Positions 15,523 to 23,580 of a stretch of DNA of 54,443 nucleotides are shown here, piece after piece. The number at the start of each line of letters is the position of its first letter. Within the stretch, counting starts at the first letter, position 1. The position numbers and the translations under genes are program-made. The DNA is from an uncultured Candidatus Saccharibacteria bacterium (GTDB lineage Bacteria > Patescibacteriota > UBA1384 > 2-12-FULL-50-11 > DASWYB01). Where the stretch lies: contig CAYJRF010000005.1 of assembly GCA_964372935.1 (NCBI GenBank), positions 1 to 54,443 on the forward strand. Reading direction: 5' to 3'. Below the pieces are notes generated by a model, which was not told the origin of the DNA, searched no databases, and saw only the letters and a program-made list of their open reading frames with translations.

Positions 15523-15548
15523 AAAACACCTCCGTTCGGAGGCGTTTT
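15523..15548. terminator. A4/T4-flanked hairpin between pilA and murB (bidirectional-type terminator)
   Basis: aaaacacctcc/gttc/ggaggcgtttt lies 20 nt after the pilin stop on the minus strand. Confidence 0.5.
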
Positions 15549-15567: not shown

Positions 15568-16017
15568 CTATTGCGAGATCGTGATAACTTTACCAAGCTC
15601 GGCTGACGGAGCGTTGCCTTTAACACGGTTACCGCCCCCGGTGGTGTCGATGCAGATGGTGTAATCGCCACTCGTTGGCTGGGGATCCGCGGGAATGCTC
15701 GAGAGATAGGTCGGCACCATCAGTTGCGTCAGGGTTGACGCGCCACCACTGCCAAACGTTGAACCACTAATTACTTCTGGGGTTGCAGTGCAAACGTCGA
15801 CACCCAGACCAGTGATAGAGCCGTTATTATCGGCGGCGTACTGATTGGCCGCGCTCACCACGGCGCGGACGTCGCTATTGCGCTGGGTGTTACGGGCTTG
15901 GGAGAACTGACGAGCGGGGTTAACCGCCACGATAACGATTGCCGCCAAAATGGCGATGATTCCGATGACAACGATAAGTTCAATTAAGGTAAAACCTTGA
16001 TAAGTCTGTTGTTTCAT
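15568..16017 (-). CDS. pilA: Major type IV pilin (PilA-like)
   Basis: Class III signal peptide MKQQTYQG|FTLIELIVVIGIIAILAAIV with Glu at +5. SD AAGGAGAGG upstream. Confidence 0.85.
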   Translation of the reverse strand: MKQQTYQGFTLIELIVVIGIIAILAAIVIVAVNPARQFSQARNTQRNSDVRAVVSAANQYAADNNGSITGLGVDVCTATPEVISGSTFGSGGASTLTQLMVPTYLSSIPADPQPTSGDYTICIDTTGGGNRVKGNAPSAELGKVITISQ

Positions 16018-16091
16018 AGCCTCTCCTTTCTTTCTGTGGACAGCGCTCGCTCGACCTCATATCTGCAGAGCGCGAAACTACCAGTAACCCT

Positions 16092-16119
16092 ACTATAACG
16101 CAATTGGAAGACATTACAA
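16092..16119 (-). promoter_or_regulatory. Sigma70-like promoter for the major pilin gene
   Basis: On the minus strand, TTGTAA, a 16-nt spacer, then TATAGT, about 75 nt upstream of the pilA ATG. Confidence 0.35.
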
Positions 16120-16159
16120 GACCGCGTCAAGAGGGTAAGTCGATTGTCCGAAACGTGGT

Positions 16160-18403
16160 TTACCTCTGGCTGAAAGCGGGCGATTTGTCGATAGCGGCGC
16201 CAAAATCCGACTCGGCAGAAAATGCTCCGCTGGTAATCTCGGCGGTCTGAAGCAACGGTTTAGCTTGAATGGTTACGACCTGCTTTCCCAGATCAATAAT
16301 ACCGCGCGCGCCAACAACCGCCAACTCGGCGGTATAATCGCCTTGGCGGAGAGGCACTATCGCCACCCCTTGGGTATTGGTAATTTTCCGTTGGACTATC
16401 AGGCCGTAGTGATTGCGAATCGAGATCAAGACATAGCCAATCGGTTGGTGATTGGCGCTGCGAACCGTGATCATCAAATTGACCTCGCGCCGGCGACGAA
16501 TTTCTTCTATCAGGCCAAATATAAAGTAGCCGCTGATCAGTCCATGCATCGGGCTGGGGGCGGTCAGAAACGCCAGTGCGGCGCCCACCCCGGCAGCCAC
16601 CAGAAATATCCGTCGCAGGCTGGCCAGGTGGAACAAGAATGACTCCAACTGCTGTAATTTAAGGTGGCTAAGTTCGAGCGGATCCATCGCTAAATTAAGC
16701 TGGCTGACGTTTTTGGCGCTTTCAAAAGTAACATTCTCGCCTCGATATGCGTTGGGCATGATATGCGAGGGAAAACTAAAAGCGCCATGCCCGGCTGTCA
16801 GGAAGAACGACCCCGCGCCAACCGGAAAAGTGTAAAAGCCGTTTTCGTCCGTTGACGTGCGGGCGATTTCTCGTTTTGACGCGGCATCGGAGAGAATCAC
16901 CGTCGCGCGGCGGATCGGACGGTTCGTGGTGGCGGCGATCACCTTACCCCAAGCTCGGCCAATTTTCTGGTGATGGGTTAAGCCGAAAAACCAGTGGCGA
17001 CTGTTGCGCAAAGCCATGACTATTCGGAAACCGCGCTGAACAGCTCCTTCGCCCAGCGATATGGCAAATAGCCCAAGGAGGAAAAACAGAAGGTTGTCAA
17101 CCGGCGAGACAGTATAATTATTGGTCAGCCAACGTTTGATCATGATGACCGCGGCGGTGAAGTTGCCCTGCGGGGTTGCTGGCGAGTCGAGTTTTTGACT
17201 GAGCAAGTCCTTATAAAATGCTCTCGTGGCCGCGTCGCCCTGATTGCGGGCTGTGCCGGCGTATGCGGCCGTAAGGGTGGTAAAACGGTGTTCGCACTCT
17301 TTGATCGCGTCGCCGGCGAGAGTAAAATAATATGTCGTATCTGGGGTTAGCTCGGAAAGTTTGTAACGGTGATTGGCGGTGTTTTGGGATTCGGTCAGGG
17401 TAATTTTGGCGTCGGCGTAGTTGTTGGCGATCCCGTCGCGTCCGGCACGGGCGGCGTCGTAAAGGTAAATTCCTAGGCGCGTGGGGATGACGGAATTGAC
17501 AGTAACGACAGCTTGAGTGTCCGAGCGTATAACCGCCAAATTACGGAGCTTTCCTTGACACGGTTTAATGTCGTCGCGCTTGGCGTAGTCAAGGCCTTCG
17601 GTATTGTCAAAACCAGTGCCGGATAAGGCGGGTGGGTTGGTGGCGGCGTTATTGTCTGGCGCTACCGTTGTGGGGGCAGTCTTGTTGGCCACGTTGGTCG
17701 TGGTCGGCGACGTTGCCACAGGGGTTATAGTTTGACTGGCGACTGGTCGGGGGGTGGGCAAGCTATAGCGGATAGTTAATTTGGGCGGCGCCGGCCCGTC
17801 GCCTGACGACACGTGGGCGTCGTCACCGGAAAATAGTCCGGTTTTATAGTCGCCGTCGCCAAAGGCGCGGAGGGCGATGCCGTGATTAGGGTAAGTTCCA
17901 GCGACCCATCCCCGCACCGCCTCGGTAACGTCGATTGACGGCGGAAAAACGTTGTTGGCTACCTCTAAGTTGGCGATGCTTTCTTCGGAATAGCTCGGTC
18001 GCGTGTTCCAGGTGGTGGTTTTATCCCATGGCGAGGTAACGCGGCGCAGGCGAATGTCGCCGTAGCCATAAATGGCCGAACCGGAGGGGGTTAAGATTAA
18101 GGTGGCATCGCCAATGATGGCGTTGTTTGGCACTTGACTAACGTCGAACTGAATAAAACTCTCCTGGGCGTCGGCCGGGGCTGTGGCCCAGTCCATGCCG
18201 CCGTCGTAAAGCATGTCGAGCACAGGAGCGGCGTCAAACTGTTTGTCCGATTCGGTCAACTTTACCGTGGTGTCGAAGCTGGGAGTCAGGCTGACTTCAC
18301 TGGCGAATGCCAATCCGGGGGCCACGGCCAGCGCCGCCAGCCAGATCGCCAGACTCGAATAGACCACCACTCGGTGTCGCCAATGATACCTGACTAAAGT
18401 CAT
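16160..18403 (-). CDS. Large pilus-operon membrane protein: DNRLRE/CBM96-like domain, Thr/Pro linker, FN3-like domain, TM segments, two CarboxypepD_reg-like domains
   Basis: Signal peptide ...APGLAFA|SE. The TTTWNTRPSYS motif is typical of DNRLRE domains (recall). FN3-like ...YKLSELTPDTTYYFTL. CarboxypepD_reg-like ATVILSD...TDENGFYTFPVGAGSFFL and a second copy near the C-terminus. About 3 internal TM helices. Confidence 0.65.
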   Translation of the reverse strand: MTLVRYHWRHRVVVYSSLAIWLAALAVAPGLAFASEVSLTPSFDTTVKLTESDKQFDAAPVLDMLYDGGMDWATAPADAQESFIQFDVSQVPNNAIIGDATLILTPSGSAIYGYGDIRLRRVTSPWDKTTTWNTRPSYSEESIANLEVANNVFPPSIDVTEAVRGWVAGTYPNHGIALRAFGDGDYKTGLFSGDDAHVSSGDGPAPPKLTIRYSLPTPRPVASQTITPVATSPTTTNVANKTAPTTVAPDNNAATNPPALSGTGFDNTEGLDYAKRDDIKPCQGKLRNLAVIRSDTQAVVTVNSVIPTRLGIYLYDAARAGRDGIANNYADAKITLTESQNTANHRYKLSELTPDTTYYFTLAGDAIKECEHRFTTLTAAYAGTARNQGDAATRAFYKDLLSQKLDSPATPQGNFTAAVIMIKRWLTNNYTVSPVDNLLFFLLGLFAISLGEGAVQRGFRIVMALRNSRHWFFGLTHHQKIGRAWGKVIAATTNRPIRRATVILSDAASKREIARTSTDENGFYTFPVGAGSFFLTAGHGAFSFPSHIMPNAYRGENVTFESAKNVSQLNLAMDPLELSHLKLQQLESFLFHLASLRRIFLVAAGVGAALAFLTAPSPMHGLISGYFIFGLIEEIRRRREVNLMITVRSANHQPIGYVLISIRNHYGLIVQRKITNTQGVAIVPLRQGDYTAELAVVGARGIIDLGKQVVTIQAKPLLQTAEITSGAFSAESDFGAAIDKSPAFSQR

Positions 18404-18404
18404 C

Positions 18405-18803
18405 CTAAAAGCTCGCGACCTCGTTATACGACACCTGCTGGAGAGTCGCCGACTGGACGACCATCGCCAAATTTGTCCTTAGACCGTTTACCGAGGACCA
18501 AGCGTGGATCGTTTTGTTATTACCGGCGGTGGTAATGGCGTCAATAGTGCAAGCGGTTGCTTGATTGCCAATGCCAATCGTGAGGGTTTCATTCCCGAGA
18601 TAAACATTATTGAGGGAAAGGTTGAGGAGGGCCTGATCCATACAACCTTGAGCGGCAAACCGGCTTTGTTGTTTGTTGGTTTCGTCGAGAGCGCCAAGTC
18701 TGGCGGTAAACGAACTTAGAGCGATTGAGGTGCTGACGGTAATGAGAACGAAAGTCAGAATAATTACCGTGGTGATGGCCATAAAGCCGGAAGGGTGTTT
18801 CAT
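18405..18803 (-). CDS. PilX/GspK-like minor pilin lacking Glu+5
   Basis: MKHPSG|FMAITTVIILTFVLITV has a pilin-like hydrophobic N-terminus with Thr at +5. ATGA overlap with the upstream gene. Confidence 0.5.
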   Translation of the reverse strand: MKHPSGFMAITTVIILTFVLITVSTSIALSSFTARLGALDETNKQQSRFAAQGCMDQALLNLSLNNVYLGNETLTIGIGNQATACTIDAITTAGNNKTIHAWSSVNGLRTNLAMVVQSATLQQVSYNEVASF

Positions 18804-19318
18804 AGGAAAAAATAAGTTTGGTCGAACTGGCTGATCTGATAGCGGCCGGTGAGTGTCATTTGGACGCGTGCCGCCGCTTGGCCATTAATTGTTAGGCGGG
18901 TAAACAAGAGACCGCTGATTTGAGCGTGGCTGTTGCTGATCGGGTAGACGACATCGGCGGAGGTGAACAAACCGTCGCCGTTGCTGTCGCGCCAGAGTCG
19001 AAGACTACCGTTGGAGTCAAGTTGATAACGCGTCCCGTTGGCCTTTTGAAACGTTAGGACGGCGGCGGCGCCGCTGGCGGGGGTAACCGAGCCCTGATTT
19101 ACTTGCTCTAACAACCAGTTAAGCTTTTGGGAGATAAAGCGCCAGTTTTCACTCACCGCGGCTCGTTCGCGGTCGCGTTGACTGGCGGTAATCATGCCGT
19201 TGGCCGACGTCATAAATACTCCCACGATGGCCGAGACCAGCGCCGAATAGAGCAAGACTTCCACCAGCGACAAGCCAGCCGGCGACCTAAAACGTCGGGC
19301 GGATAATTCTAAGGGCAT
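18800..19318 (-). CDS. Minor pilin / pseudopilin
   Basis: ...RFRSPAG|LSLVEVLLYSALVSAIVGV with Glu at +5. Start placed at the internal ATG at 19318; the track ORF extends to 19399 inside the upstream gene. Confidence 0.65.
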   Translation of the reverse strand: MPLELSARRFRSPAGLSLVEVLLYSALVSAIVGVFMTSANGMITASQRDRERAAVSENWRFISQKLNWLLEQVNQGSVTPASGAAAVLTFQKANGTRYQLDSNGSLRLWRDSNGDGLFTSADVVYPISNSHAQISGLLFTRLTINGQAAARVQMTLTGRYQISQFDQTYFFL

Positions 19319-20714
19319 TGTTGCTCCTGACGGAAATATAGATGGTGTTGTTTTCATAGGTAATTCCGGTGGCGGCCTGGGGGAAATTGAGGGTGCCATA
19401 GTCGATGTTGATACTGGCCGGATTAGCGATGTCCAGGACCTGAAATTCGGCGTTCGGCTCTTCCGTAACCATAAACATCAAGCGGTTAACGGCGACCATG
19501 TCGTTAATGCCGGCGGCCATGCCGGCGGAACCCAACAGGGTGATCGCCGCCGGATTGAAGGCGTTGAGGATAAAAAACTCTGGGGCGGTGTCCGACAGCT
19601 TGCGTCCAAGATAAACGTTAAATTCGTCTTTGACAAAGACGCTGTAGCCGTCGGTGGTATCGGCGGCGTTGTAGCTCCCCAATTTGGTCATACTGGCCGG
19701 ACTACTGACGTCAATGACCATCAACTCCTCGTTATCCACCGAGGTAGCAAGGTAGGCGCGCTGATTGAATATCGTCATGTTGTTAACGTTGCCGTTAATC
19801 TCCAAACTGCCTAAAACCGTCGGATTAGCCGGATCGGTCACATTCAGGGCGTAAAACTCTGGCGCCCCGCTTAAGACTTCCATGCCGACGTACAGCGTGT
19901 TGCCCGACACCTCCAGACTTAAAGCGCGACAGGCGCATAAGTCTAGCCGCCGGACAACGACGGGTAAAGCCGGGTTGCTGACGTTGACGATAATCAGCTC
20001 GTCGGTTGAGCCGCCGGCGAGCGAGCCGTAAAGATAATTGCCGCTCACGGCGATCATGGAAATATTGGAGACGCCTAGGTCAACACTACTGTTATTAATC
20101 GGATTGTTGGGGTTAGTAACGTCAAAAATCGCCAGATCAGGCTTCGATTGATTAGCCGCGCTGGCCGACAAATAGACGCGGTTATTGAGACCCTTTACGT
20201 CGGTGCCGGCGGCGCCGATGGCGATGTCGGCTGTGCCGGCGCTTAAGGGCACTTTCCAATTGCCTTCGATATAGTTGCTGGCCTGGGTAACGCTCCAGTT
20301 GGTTAAAATTATGTTCAGGCTCACGGCCAGCGGCCGATTGTGCAAACCAGTCCAAGTAATGGCGCTGGTAACGTTTTTGCTGTTGGCCGAACGGGGGGTG
20401 ATAGTCAAACGGCGGGTAAACGTTCCTTTGGTGTCGCTCGATCCGGAAAATTGCCAATTATTGGCGACTTGGGATAAACCGAAAGTGCCGTTTTGGAGAT
20501 TGCTCCACCCCTGATTTCGAATTAGGCGGACGGCCTCGACGCCCTCCTTGGCGTAGGCCGAGGCGGCCAGAGCGTTTTGGGTGTCGGTCACCAGGGCGCG
20601 GCCGCCAGTAATGAGGGTGATTAAACTTGATGAGGTCATTAAAAACACGCTCGAGGCGATGACTAACTCTAGAACAGTCTGGCCGAGGTGGAAGCGCTTC
20701 ACGACAGCTACCAA
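19287..20714 (-). CDS. Pilin-like N-terminus fused to an LVIVD-repeat beta-propeller (candidate pilus tip adhesin)
   Basis: KRFHLG|QTVLELVIASSVFLM has Glu at +5. A likely GTG start at 20702 gives the leader MKRFHLG. At least 6 repeats of the type ELIIVNVSNPALP, LMVIDVSSPAS, FQVLDIANPAS, LAIFDVTNPNNP. Confidence 0.7.
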   Translation of the reverse strand: MVAVVKRFHLGQTVLELVIASSVFLMTSSSLITLITGGRALVTDTQNALAASAYAKEGVEAVRLIRNQGWSNLQNGTFGLSQVANNWQFSGSSDTKGTFTRRLTITPRSANSKNVTSAITWTGLHNRPLAVSLNIILTNWSVTQASNYIEGNWKVPLSAGTADIAIGAAGTDVKGLNNRVYLSASAANQSKPDLAIFDVTNPNNPINNSSVDLGVSNISMIAVSGNYLYGSLAGGSTDELIIVNVSNPALPVVVRRLDLCACRALSLEVSGNTLYVGMEVLSGAPEFYALNVTDPANPTVLGSLEINGNVNNMTIFNQRAYLATSVDNEELMVIDVSSPASMTKLGSYNAADTTDGYSVFVKDEFNVYLGRKLSDTAPEFFILNAFNPAAITLLGSAGMAAGINDMVAVNRLMFMVTEEPNAEFQVLDIANPASINIDYGTLNFPQAATGITYENNTIYISVRSNNALRIIRPTF

Positions 20715-21145
20715 TCAACCGTTCCTTCGGCGTTAGTCGTCACCGTCAAAATGCGATTGCCGGTTTGAAGGGTAATGACCGCGTTGCTGGTTTGTCCCGT
20801 CAGGGCGGTAAAGTTAAGATCCGCCGGTCCGGTCATGGTAACGGCGTTGGGTCGAGGGTACGTCAGACTTTGTTGAGTCGCGCCGGCGGCGTTCGGGCCC
20901 TGGTAGACGATAATCTGGGCGCTGGTAATACTCACCCCGTGGTTTGACTGATTAAGGTTGGTAACGGCCCGATCACGGGCGTAGGTCAAAAATGATACCA
21001 GGTTATCACGGGTGTCTCGCAGGTTGTAAGACGCCAGAAGGTCGAAGGTGGCTGGCGCCACCAAGCCGATCATGGTCGTCGCGATGGCGATCGCCATTAT
21101 TAACTCAATTAATGTATAGGCGGCAAGGGAACGGGCGCCGATCAT
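20708..21145 (-). CDS. GspH/FimT-like minor pilin
   Basis: MIGARSLAA|YTLIELIMAIAIATTMIGL with Glu at +5 and Ala at -1. LVSFLTYARDRAV resembles the GspH AR motif. The ATG at 21145 lies 1 nt after the pilC stop. Confidence 0.65.
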   Translation of the reverse strand: MIGARSLAAYTLIELIMAIAIATTMIGLVAPATFDLLASYNLRDTRDNLVSFLTYARDRAVTNLNQSNHGVSITSAQIIVYQGPNAAGATQQSLTYPRPNAVTMTGPADLNFTALTGQTSNAVITLQTGNRILTVTTNAEGTVDW

Positions 21146-21146
21146 G

Positions 21147-22214
21147 TCATTTTCCAATCGTTTGGCCCAGGCTGTAGATTGGCAGAATGATGGAGATGGA
21201 TATAAAGCCAACCAAACCACCCATGAATACCATCATCAACGGTTCGAGCAGGGAGATCATGTTTTTGGCAGTCTCGTCAACTTCTTGTTCGTAGTAATCG
21301 CTTAAGTAATTGAGGGTGGTTTCTAGGGTGCCGGCGGTTTCGCTAACTTCCACCATCTGGGAGAACATTTTTGGAAACAACTTCGGATAGCCCTGGAGGT
21401 ACTTACCCAACGGCGCGCCGACTCTGACTTGATCGGCCGCCCCGCGGGTAATTTGTCGGTAGACAAGGTTGGGCATGACTTCACTGGTGATGCCAAGGGC
21501 CTCGACGATTTTTGTCCCGCTTTTTAGAAGGACCGCGAAGGTGCGGGCAAACATGGCCACTTGGACGCTGCGGAAAAGGGGTCCCAAAATCGGTATGTGG
21601 AGGAAAAATCGGTGAATAAAGAATCGAAATGACCCAATATTGAGGGTGAGGCGGAAGGCGATGACAAAACTGGTGATAGACAGTATTACCGCGAGCCAAT
21701 AATGAGTAAAGAAGGCGTGAGTTTTAATCAGCACTCGGGTGGAAAGGGGAAGGATAACGTTCAGGGTACTGAAGACCGGCAAAATTTTGGGGAAGATCAA
21801 AAACATCAAGACGCTCGTGAGTCCCAAGGTCGTAACGAGAATTATTATCGGGTAAAGCATGGCATTGAGAATTTTGCTCGTGAGCATCTGGCGTTTTTTG
21901 AGTTCAACGGCCAAAAGTTCGAGGTTTTCCGACAGTGTCCCGCTGCTCTCGCCGACGCGGATGATATTAATAAACAGGCTGCCCAAGGCGCCCTCGAATT
22001 TCTTTAAGCCGGTGGAGAGGAACTGGCCATTTTCCAGGTCGTCAATAACCGATTGGAGCACTTTGTGCATACTGCGAGACTGGGTTTGTTGCTCGATCAT
22101 ATACAAGCTGTCGAGGAGGGGCATGCCCGAGCGCACCATCAAAGAAATATTACGGGCAAACAAAATTTGCTCCTTCACCGGTACTCGAAGGAAAAAGCTC
22201 CCAGATTTACTCAT
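21147..22214 (-). CDS. pilC: Type IV pilus platform protein PilC (GspF family)
   Basis: Two T2SSF repeats, 3-4 TM helices, and an 8-nt overlap with pilB. Confidence 0.9.
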   Translation of the reverse strand: MSKSGSFFLRVPVKEQILFARNISLMVRSGMPLLDSLYMIEQQTQSRSMHKVLQSVIDDLENGQFLSTGLKKFEGALGSLFINIIRVGESSGTLSENLELLAVELKKRQMLTSKILNAMLYPIIILVTTLGLTSVLMFLIFPKILPVFSTLNVILPLSTRVLIKTHAFFTHYWLAVILSITSFVIAFRLTLNIGSFRFFIHRFFLHIPILGPLFRSVQVAMFARTFAVLLKSGTKIVEALGITSEVMPNLVYRQITRGAADQVRVGAPLGKYLQGYPKLFPKMFSQMVEVSETAGTLETTLNYLSDYYEQEVDETAKNMISLLEPLMMVFMGGLVGFISISIILPIYSLGQTIGK

Positions 22215-23580
22215 GGACGACTCGCAAAACTTCTTCGATGGTCGTCTGACCGTTAATCGCCCGCCGAAACCCGTCTTGGAGCATGGTGGTCATGCCCGCG
22301 CTTTCGGCATAGTGGGAAATTTCGGCGGCGCTGGCCCGTTTCATTATTAGCTCTCTGATTTGATCGTCAACCACCAGGACTTCGTAAATGCCGACTCGAC
22401 CCAAGTAGCCACTCCCGCCGCAGACACCGCAGCCCCGGCCGACAAAAAATTGCCGCGTATTGCCAAGCGTTTGGGGCGGGATGGATTCGGCCAAGCTTTG
22501 ATATTCAACGTCGGTAATAACTTTAGGGGCGCGACAGTAAGAGCAAATTTTCCGCACCAGCCGCTGACCGACGGCGACGTTAACGGTTGAAGCGATCAAG
22601 AACGGTTCGATCTTGAATTCGCTCAATCGAGCCAGGGTTGTCGGGGCGTCGTTGGTGTGGACGGTCGACAAAAGCAAGTGGCCGGTCAAGGCCGCGTTAA
22701 CGGCAATTTCGGCGGTTTCTTCGTCGCGTATTTCTCCCACCATAATTATATTGGGATCTTGGCGTAAAAATGACCGCAGCCCATTGGCGAATGTTAGGCC
22801 GGACTGGGGGTTAACCTGAATTTGGTTGATGCCTTCCATGGAGTATTCAATCGGGTCCTCGATTGTAATAATCGACACTTCCGGTTTATTGAGCGTGTGA
22901 AGAATGGTGTAAAGCATGGTAGTCTTGCCCGAGCCGGTCGGGCCGGTGGCGAGAATCATGCCATAAGGACGAGTGATGGCGTGCTTGACTTTTTGAAGAT
23001 CGAGCGGAAACATGTCCATGTGTTCCAAGGTGAAAGACTCCGATGGCGACTGGAGAAGACGCATTTCAACGTTTTCACCGTAATATGTTGGGACGATTGA
23101 GACGCGAATATCAACCGGTCCAAGGTCGCGCAGGACCATTTTTAATCGCCCGTCTTGAGGGATCTGATGTTCGTCGGTTCGCAGACCGCACAGGATTTTG
23201 ATGCGCGAAACAAACACCGACTGAATGATCCGGGGAAGCGACAGAGCGTCGTGAAGAATGCCGTCAATCCGAAATCGTACCCGAACATAAGTTGGGGTGG
23301 GGTCAACGTGAATATCCGATGATTGCAAGAGGCTGGCATAGGCGATGAGCTGATCGACTAAGCGAACAATTGAAAATTCGCTCGCGTGGCGCGACAGTTC
23401 CTGTTCAATCGAGGCGCGAAGGGTCGCGGCGGTTTGGGCCGCTTGGGCGCGTTCAAGTATCTCCTGCTGTTCGCGCAGTTGCGTTGCCGTTACAGCGGCA
23501 TTGGGACCGACCACGGGCGAAGCAACATTCGCGCCGACGCCAGCCGCGGCCGAATCGTTCGTTGGATTGGCCGCGCCCAT
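22207..23580 (-). CDS. pilB: Type IV pilus assembly ATPase PilB (GspE family)
   Basis: Walker A GPTGSGKTT, Asp and His boxes, tetracysteine CSYC...CGVCGGSG. Low-complexity N-terminus with no T2SSE_N domain. The 5' end may extend (see finding). Confidence 0.93.
   Translation of the reverse strand: MGAANPTNDSAAAGVGANVASPVVGPNAAVTATQLREQQEILERAQAAQTAATLRASIEQELSRHASEFSIVRLVDQLIAYASLLQSSDIHVDPTPTYVRVRFRIDGILHDALSLPRIIQSVFVSRIKILCGLRTDEHQIPQDGRLKMVLRDLGPVDIRVSIVPTYYGENVEMRLLQSPSESFTLEHMDMFPLDLQKVKHAITRPYGMILATGPTGSGKTTMLYTILHTLNKPEVSIITIEDPIEYSMEGINQIQVNPQSGLTFANGLRSFLRQDPNIIMVGEIRDEETAEIAVNAALTGHLLLSTVHTNDAPTTLARLSEFKIEPFLIASTVNVAVGQRLVRKICSYCRAPKVITDVEYQSLAESIPPQTLGNTRQFFVGRGCGVCGGSGYLGRVGIYEVLVVDDQIRELIMKRASAAEISHYAESAGMTTMLQDGFRRAINGQTTIEEVLRVVHE

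Follow-up and report, generated by a model that had tools for sequence, protein, structure and literature searches.

Of the organelles by which episymbiotic Patescibacteria attach to hosts, type IV pili are the best supported, and little is known about their non-pilin partners. In Gram-negative bacteria, the operon order is fimU-pilVWXY1, with pilY1 after pilX (PMC7541494). Modular pilins carrying lectin modules have been described as PilC of Streptococcus sanguinis and as PilX1/PilX2 of Saccharibacteria TM7x (PMC9934059, PMC12206443). Among carbohydrate-binding modules (CBMs), the founding CBM96 is TM6-N4 of the alginate lyase Dp0100 from Defluviitalea phaphyphila, which binds alginate (PMC9971899). 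Lyases of alginate, hyaluronate, and pectate carry DNRLRE domains, as do archaeal disaggregatase-type proteins. Here, we analyse a contig of an uncultured, ultrasmall Candidatus Saccharibacteria bacterium (GCA_964372935.1, CAYJRF010000005.1, positions 1 to 54,443; this whole 54,443-nucleotide stretch is called the window) and in it the open reading frame (ORF) P0001 at 16160–18403, which has an ATG start and encodes 747 aa plus a stop. It lies on the minus strand, which a preliminary description of this otherwise real ORF had left unstated. The protein combines a DNRLRE/CBM96 head, an FN3-like domain, and a C-terminal module with three transmembrane (TM) helices and two beta-sandwiches, and its gene is the last one of a type IV pilus cassette. 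With a little more than even confidence, we propose that it is exported by Sec, tethered to the membrane, and translated together with the tip minor pilins, that it would serve as a lectin-type accessory which binds glycans close to the cell and works with the pilus in attachment, and that its C-terminal module is a generic anchor of the Candidate Phyla Radiation (CPR).

A CBM96 head in a pilus cassette

The protein was divided into the following parts by hydropathy, family searches, conservation, and AlphaFold2 (AF2) modelling:
18302–18403, minus: signal peptide, residues 1–34, of the Sec/SPase I type, with a basic n-region, a hydrophobic core, and AFA/SE (slash at the cleavage site); not of the prepilin (class III) type
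17762–18301, minus: DNRLRE/CBM96 jelly-roll head, residues 35–214 (Pfam, NCBIfam, conservation, Foldseek)
17582–17761, minus: low-complexity stalk rich in Thr, Pro, Ala, and Ser, residues 215–274 (composition; predicted local distance difference test score (pLDDT) in AF2 below 30)
17270–17581, minus: FN3-like beta-sandwich, residues 275–378, with invariant C282 and C370 and a TTYYFTL...ECEH motif
17111–17269, minus: poorly conserved helical/linker segment before the membrane, residues 379–431 (AF2, identity profile)
17048–17110, minus: TM helix 1, residues 432–452, predicted to run from out to in (hydropathy, AF2, charge)
16955–17047, minus: polybasic amphipathic juxtamembrane helix, residues 453–483, ending in a conserved WG(R/K)V motif
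16679–16954, minus: CarboxypepD_reg-like beta-sandwich 1, residues 484–575, predicted cytoplasmic
16496–16678, minus: amphipathic helix and TM2–TM3 helical hairpin (597–614 and 618–636), residues 576–636, with an uncharged loop of about 4 residues
16229–16495, minus: CnaB/CarboxypepD_reg-like beta-sandwich 2, residues 637–725, predicted cytoplasmic

The preliminary description had named a DNRLRE/CBM96-type domain with a TTTWNTRP motif, and both curated models score it above their cut-offs. CBM96 (PF24517, Pfam) matches residues 37–179 (E = 1.5e-13, 51.3 bits against a cut-off of 26) and DNRLRE_dom (NF033679, NCBIfam) matches residues 44–196 (E = 4.4e-24, 85.4 bits against 34), and the CBM96 model also matches 8 of 8 orthologs. 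Besides TTTWNTRP, the head carries the DNRLRE variant G-D-I-R-L-R-R at residues 115–121, in which D116, R118, and R120 are invariant in the eight orthologs, and the same holds for W126, T131, W132, and P136 in the TTTWNTRP region. Foldseek matched the modelled head to 8wab, a chondroitin-sulfate CBM (TM-score 0.68), and to 4ycg, pro-BMP9 (0.53), and the head has a jelly-roll fold like those of solved CBMs.

Other parts of the earlier architecture also hold. The cleavable signal peptide is of the Sec type, with a hydrophobic core at residues 12–30 by hydropathy and AF2 and an AxA-A-E/D site that is kept in eight orthologs, and the Thr/Pro/Ala-rich linker corresponds to the stalk. For the FN3-like module, the fold is a predicted one and the family matches are below threshold: no fn3 model matched the protein above threshold in the hidden Markov model (HMM) search, and Pur_ac_phosph_N, an FN3-like family, matched 8 of 8 orthologs, all below its cut-off (best E = 1.8e-5; 22 bits against 30). 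AF2 predicts a seven-strand sandwich at 275–375 with a pLDDT of about 80, and Foldseek matches to FN3 arrays gave only poor global superposition. This call alone among those for the domains misses the formal family threshold.

Conservation is concentrated in the head. Over five complete cassettes, mean pairwise identity is 68% for PilB, 58% for PilC, 53% for the pilin fused to an LVIVD propeller, 43% for the PilX-like protein, about 37% for the other minor pilins, and 35% for the whole P0001 protein. Within the latter, it is 52%, close to the value of the LVIVD pilin, for the CBM96 head, which has about 40 invariant positions, compared to 41% for sandwich 1, 28% for the FN3-like domain, 22% for sandwich 2, and 16–24% for the linkers. 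As all remaining parts lie at 16–41%, the head is the constrained part of the protein.

The gene is also firmly placed. Its ATG at 18403 lies 1 nt past the TAG stop of the 132-aa PilX-like ORF (18405–18803), as had been noticed before, and inspection of the start region found no properly spaced Shine–Dalgarno sequence. This spacing, together with the missing Shine–Dalgarno sequence, makes it plausible that the gene is translated in coupling with the PilX-like gene. Orthologs were collected by an exhaustive HMMER search of representatives, which gave seven full-length proteins (32–37% identity, 682–739 aa) and a short one, P0009 (48% identity over the head). A word-indexed homolog search returned only the query for the whole protein and one ortholog more for a profile, among the 8000 candidates scored in each of these two runs, and only the query for the C-terminal module; a scan of a genome-contig collection returned only two relatives already known, and one of a metagenome-contig collection none. 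Nine contexts show what lies upstream (the window, G001/P0003, P0002, P0004–P0008, and P0009; the G002 copy is truncated at the end of its contig). In all nine, the gene is the last member of a cassette of pilB, pilC, and four minor pilins, with a start that falls between 23 nt inside and 1 nt past the PilX-like stop. The downstream genes vary, being the major pilin and murB in the window and groES/EL in the others; since they differ while the upstream cassette is constant, the linkage is with the pilus genes. The tie to the pilus operon proposed in the preliminary description is thus borne out, and the random distribution relative to pilus loci that it had named as a counter-indication is not seen in the orthologous subfamily. 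The gene belongs to a lineage-specific type IV pilus cassette, similar to Com and type II secretion systems (T2SS), of a small Patescibacteria family. The members of the cassette and the pilin gene that follows it in the window are:
22207–23580, minus: PilB/GspE ATPase, 457 aa, without an MshEN N-terminal domain
21147–22214, minus: PilC/GspF platform protein, 355 aa (HMM match)
20708–21220, minus: GspH/ComGD-like minor pilin, longest ORF 170 aa, the real start probably being the ATG at 21145
19287–20714, minus: minor pilin fused to an LVIVD beta-propeller, 475 aa (HMM match)
18800–19399, minus: minor pilin, longest ORF 199 aa, with the prepilin motif G/LSLVE
18405–18803, minus: PilX/GspK-like minor pilin, 132 aa, with its stop 1 nt before the ATG of P0001
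15568–16017, minus: major pilin, 149 aa, with G/FTLIE, 142 nt downstream of P0001

P0001 closes this tightly packed minus-strand cassette, and a 142-nt gap, the major pilin, and murB follow. A promoter-like TTGTAA-16-TATAGT lies in the gap ahead of the major pilin (16119–16092, minus), such sites being no commoner than chance, and a hairpin follows the major pilin stop at about 15529–15542; the promoter and terminator scans gave counts at chance level. All three species representatives of the window's family carry the gene. Other cassettes with this layout do without it (C6 of the same genome and, from other families, G008, G023, and G034); these have the homologous LVIVD pilin, and their PilX-like gene is directly followed by the major pilin. 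The gene is therefore a lineage-specific addition and not a universal need of this pilus type.

The C-terminal anchor module

We defined the anchor module as a TM helix, an LP...polybasic...WGRV stretch, sandwich 1 with FPS...Y.G, an LR.PLL TM hairpin, and sandwich 2, located C-terminally on a secreted protein. P0001 has all these elements in its C-terminal 340 residues (window 16163–17191, minus). The CarboxypepD_reg model (PF13620) matches sandwich 1 at 486–540 (E = 1.3e-9, 38.7 bits against a cut-off of 32.3), and AF2 models this domain with a pLDDT above 90. For sandwich 2, the Pfam match is weak and below threshold; a family profile matches the CnaB repeats of PDB 6fwv at 635–703 (E = 3.6e-8), and AF2 again gives a beta-sandwich with a pLDDT above 90. 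Both of the CarboxypepD_reg-like sandwiches claimed earlier can thus be kept, the first by the Pfam cut-off and the second by the profile match and the model, and the 'about three' TM helices are found at 432–452, 597–614, and 618–636, where hydropathy and AF2 agree. These searches place the protein in two domain families, DNRLRE/CBM96 and CarboxypepD_reg.

The module ends many CPR proteins with unrelated ectodomains (for example, P0039, P0044, P0107, and P0110), including Kelch propellers and giants of 1500–1839 aa, and also occurs in a 304-aa stand-alone form; with phmmer, it was matched in 32 of the top 150 relatives. An alignment of 27 modules (A2) was used for AF2 modelling and charge counts. 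The module was modelled as one compact unit (pLDDT 86.6, predicted TM-score (pTM) 0.79), for which Foldseek found no whole-module counterpart in the PDB, the matches covering single sandwiches only (best query-normalised TM-score 0.24). No pilus-machine part appeared among the Foldseek matches to the whole model or to the module. The short ortholog P0009 (L034:5043–6062, 339 aa) occupies the same operon slot and keeps the signal peptide and the CBM96 head, with a low-complexity Gly/Ser linker and a single C-terminal TM helix in place of the FN3-like domain and the whole module. As P0009 lacks the module and the module is generically distributed, the module, read from its sequence distribution, is primarily an anchor, a generic one of CPR surface proteins, and what stays constant in the slot is a CBM96 head that is tethered to the membrane and displayed at the surface.

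The two invariant cysteines of the FN3-like domain and its T.YY(F/Y)(T/S)...(Q/K)(E/D)CE(H/N) motif accompany the anchor module in many CPR proteins (among them P0010, P0011, P0012, P0015, P0017, and P0044), so that the FN3-like domain and the anchor may form a larger conserved unit with a disulfide outside the cell. The genome also encodes a 532-aa module paralog (L015:5354–6952, equivalent to G000:C3:29353–30951) that has an N-terminal TM helix and a long Pro/Thr linker and no CBM96, and whose gene adjoins a response-regulator gene.

Charge counts over the 27 homologs bear on the orientation of the module. The approximately 33 residues after TM1 contain on average 5.5 K/R and 0.5 D/E (6–10 K/R and 0–1 D/E in eight orthologs), the TM2–TM3 loop, of about 4 residues, is uncharged, the net charge of sandwich 2 is +5, and in 22 of the 27 only one strongly hydrophobic segment precedes the polybasic motif. 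The cleaved Sec signal, the obviously extracellular Thr/Pro stalk, and the positive-inside rule together point to both sandwiches being cytoplasmic. We therefore consider it likely that the ectodomain is outside, TM1 crosses from out to in, sandwich 1 is inside, and the TM2–TM3 hairpin leads to sandwich 2, also inside. A fourth TM span at residues 453–483, with the sandwiches then lying outside, was rejected, as every ortholog has 6–10 K/R there. The module appears to be common and structurally well defined in CPR surface proteins, giants included; it has no solved counterpart, and the predicted cytoplasmic location of its Ig-like domains is unexpected.

Proposed role and its alternatives

In the reading that we favour, P0001 would be translated along with the four tip minor pilins, exported by Sec, and freed of its signal peptide. 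The TM helix, polybasic helix, beta-sandwich, TM hairpin, and second beta-sandwich would hold it in the cytoplasmic membrane, and a flexible Thr/Pro stalk with the FN3-like spacer would show the CBM96 head outside the cell. There, the head would bind a polysaccharide, conserved and probably acidic, of the host cell or of the cell's own envelope, and the protein would work with the pilus as a cell-proximal lectin or adhesin in attachment. We infer glycan binding by the head from family membership only, and we also infer the cooperation with the pilus. For the ligand, an acidic polysaccharide is the most reasonable guess, given the fold match to 8wab, the alginate binding of the CBM96 founder, and the lyases for alginate, hyaluronate, and pectate that carry DNRLRE domains.

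Two functional ideas had been put forward in the preliminary description, and coupling of the pilus to a glycan fits best, as the head is the most conserved part and P0009 keeps it without the module. The other, that the protein replaces a missing alignment or anchoring subcomplex, is not supported and was rejected. This subcomplex is indeed absent from the cassette itself; however, PilN, PilO, and a PilM-like gene are found in the same 790-kb genome, which has four pilB-pilC clusters, on contigs C1, C4, C5 (the window, 15568–23580), and C6, and an orphan T2SSE ATPase on C14. The loci outside the window are:
C1, 48778–59309: cluster encoding PilN, PilO, PilT, and PilD
C4, 27–15412: cluster with a PilM-like gene and with a minor pilin of 1080 aa
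C6, 22415–29127: paralog of the window cassette without the CBM96 gene
C14, 12059–13618: orphan T2SSE ATPase

The PilM family search of this genome mostly met other actin-like ATPases, and only the C4 match, which lies inside a pilus cluster, was kept. Just upstream of this PilM-like gene, an ORF of the C4 cluster (G000:C4:6799–7704) runs into an X-translated stretch (masked or N bases). In addition, the four sister cassettes have neither pilMNO nor P0001, the anchor is generic, and the predicted N-out orientation is unlike that of PilN and PilO.

Several points weigh against the lectin-type accessory that we favour. A PDB sequence search with the single protein gave no match, and the alginate-binding Lys/Arg groove of TM6-N4 (residues K10, K27, R36, and Y159) could not be mapped onto the head. 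DNRLRE glycan binding has been proven only in a few enzymes (for alginate and chondroitin sulfate), and the AF2 confidence of the head is moderate (pLDDT about 60–85). Such strong conservation of the head is rarely seen in adhesins that set host range; binding to a conserved part of the machine or to the cell's own wall would account for it equally well. Sister cassettes run without the gene, so its contribution may be minor. Finally, the PilB proteins of gene-bearing cassettes differ from others in a way that hints at a role at the level of the pilus machine, which the lectin reading leaves unexplained.

The last point is the main one for the alternative that survives best, a structural or regulatory subunit of the pilus machine, whose ectodomain would fix the machine to the wall and whose cytoplasmic sandwiches would dock to or regulate the MshEN-less PilB or PilC, taking over the role of PilM/N/O or of MshEN; this corresponds to the anchoring idea of the preliminary description. 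The MshEN domain (PF05157) is missing in 4 of 4 gene-bearing cassettes with a complete PilB (window 22207–23580; L019:4676–6118; L021:4685–6148; L022:4587–5954), where the N-terminus is instead Pro/Ala-rich and of low complexity; in the P0009-type genome, PilB runs off the contig and stands outside the comparison. In contrast, all five PilB proteins tested from cassettes lacking the gene have MshEN; four of these cassettes share the layout of the window (C6, G008, G023, and G034), and the fifth is the pilM-containing C4. Since this sets one clade against several others, the correlation (4/4 versus 0/5 lacking MshEN) is not phylogenetically independent. Strict synteny with coupled frames in 9 of 9 contexts, a charge distribution that puts both sandwiches in the cytoplasm, and the conservation of head and sandwich 1 at machine-like levels also suit a machine subunit. 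Yet the module is generic and sits on many proteins unrelated to pili, P0009 takes the same slot without it, other loci of the genome encode PilM, PilN, and PilO, sister cassettes do without both pilMNO and P0001, and the protein resembles neither PilM/N/O nor GspL/M nor another part of the machine in sequence or fold. We thus regard a machine subunit as improbable, at roughly one chance in a handful or somewhat less. A bolder version would make the module an undescribed CPR-wide transmembrane device with two Ig-like sandwiches in the cytoplasm that relays the glycan state of the head to the MshEN-less PilB or to PilC, and the protein an outside-in sensor or clutch for pilus extension instead of a passive adhesin; as a reading of the sequence data, this seems decidedly unlikely.

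The protein could instead be an ordinary CPR surface protein, a passenger at the operon end with no functional tie to the pilus. A wider family with the CBM96-FN3-anchor or FN3-anchor design does exist outside pilus cassettes (P0012, P0014 (G001:C63), P0010, and the C3 paralog), with P0012 and P0014 in a murB-ftsEX neighbourhood and P0010 near dnaA, and sister cassettes lack the gene. However, 9 of 9 contexts keep the slot, at protein identities of 32–48% and with varying genes downstream, every start codon overlaps or adjoins the stop of the PilX-like gene, and P0009, with a different anchor, is still found in the slot, so that a mere passenger is a distinctly unlikely explanation. P0012 (L033:8001–10142) and P0014 (L014:1415–3628) form a paralogous CBM96-FN3-anchor subfamily, encoded on the opposite strand inside a murB - His-phosphatase - ftsEX neighbourhood, and the same neighbourhood lies just downstream of the pilus cassette in the window.

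Least probable of all is a PilY1-like tip adhesin, with an ectodomain released and carried on the minor-pilin tip complex, for although the place right after the PilX-like gene and the Sec rather than prepilin signal parallel the fimU-pilVWXY1 order (PMC7541494), the protein has three TM helices (one in P0009) with no cleavage motif identified, no PilY1/Neisseria_PilC domain match, and a system whose propeller is already fused to a pilin.

As a lectin-type accessory, P0001 is a concrete and conserved candidate for a non-pilin partner of the pilus and could point to what uncultured cells grip, and the pairing of the gene with an MshEN-less PilB is a small, testable lead on the control of pared-down pilus machines.

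Comparison with known systems

Literature searches found no paper describing the protein or the anchor module, and only an automatic NCBI name exists ('DNRLRE domain-containing protein', for the ortholog P0003). A preprint on a 'Pam pilus' (PMC13278184) concerns an unrelated donor-strand system. The protein is no canonical pilus protein, as had been suggested; it belongs neither to the pilins nor to PilY1 or PilM/N/O.

Like PilM, PilN, and PilO (GspL/GspM), the protein is membrane-embedded, encoded with pilB and pilC, and predicted to have parts on both sides of the membrane. It differs in having no sequence or fold similarity to them, with no match to PilN (PF05137), PilO (PF04350), or PilM (PF11104), and in its predicted N-out orientation, compared to the bitopic N-in topology of PilN and PilO. 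The C-terminal sandwiches resemble the transthyretin-like Ig domains of CarboxypepD_reg, CnaB, and NOMO by HMM, profile, and Foldseek; those domains are usually extracytoplasmic, whereas the sandwiches of P0001 are interleaved with TM helices and predicted to be cytoplasmic.

With the PilY1/PilC-type adhesins it shares being a non-pilin with a Sec signal, encoded directly after a pilX-like gene and carrying a putative N-terminal binding domain. In contrast to PilY1, it has no propeller domain and is an integral membrane protein with three TM helices, so it cannot ride the tip of a fibre, and it is restricted to one Patescibacteria family. A PilY1 homolog was rejected on the lack of a PilY1/Neisseria_PilC domain match (Pfam, E up to 1) and the presence of the TM helices.

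Compared to CBM96/DNRLRE proteins, it scores above both curated cut-offs, has the DxRLRx and TTWNxRP motifs, and shows the jelly-roll fold; unlike the enzymes among them, it lacks a catalytic carbohydrate-active enzyme (CAZyme) module, is membrane-tethered, and is encoded in a pilus operon. A prepilin or modular pilin was rejected, as the protein has a 34-residue Sec signal with AFA/SE instead of a class III signal; it gave no N_methyl match and no class III motif, which the neighbouring genes did match. It nevertheless recalls the lectin-module pilins in pairing a glycan-binding-type module with a monoderm/CPR type IV pilus, and its cassette also contains a pilin-propeller fusion. The difference is that in P0001 the lectin-type module is carried not on a pilin but on a separate, membrane-anchored protein.

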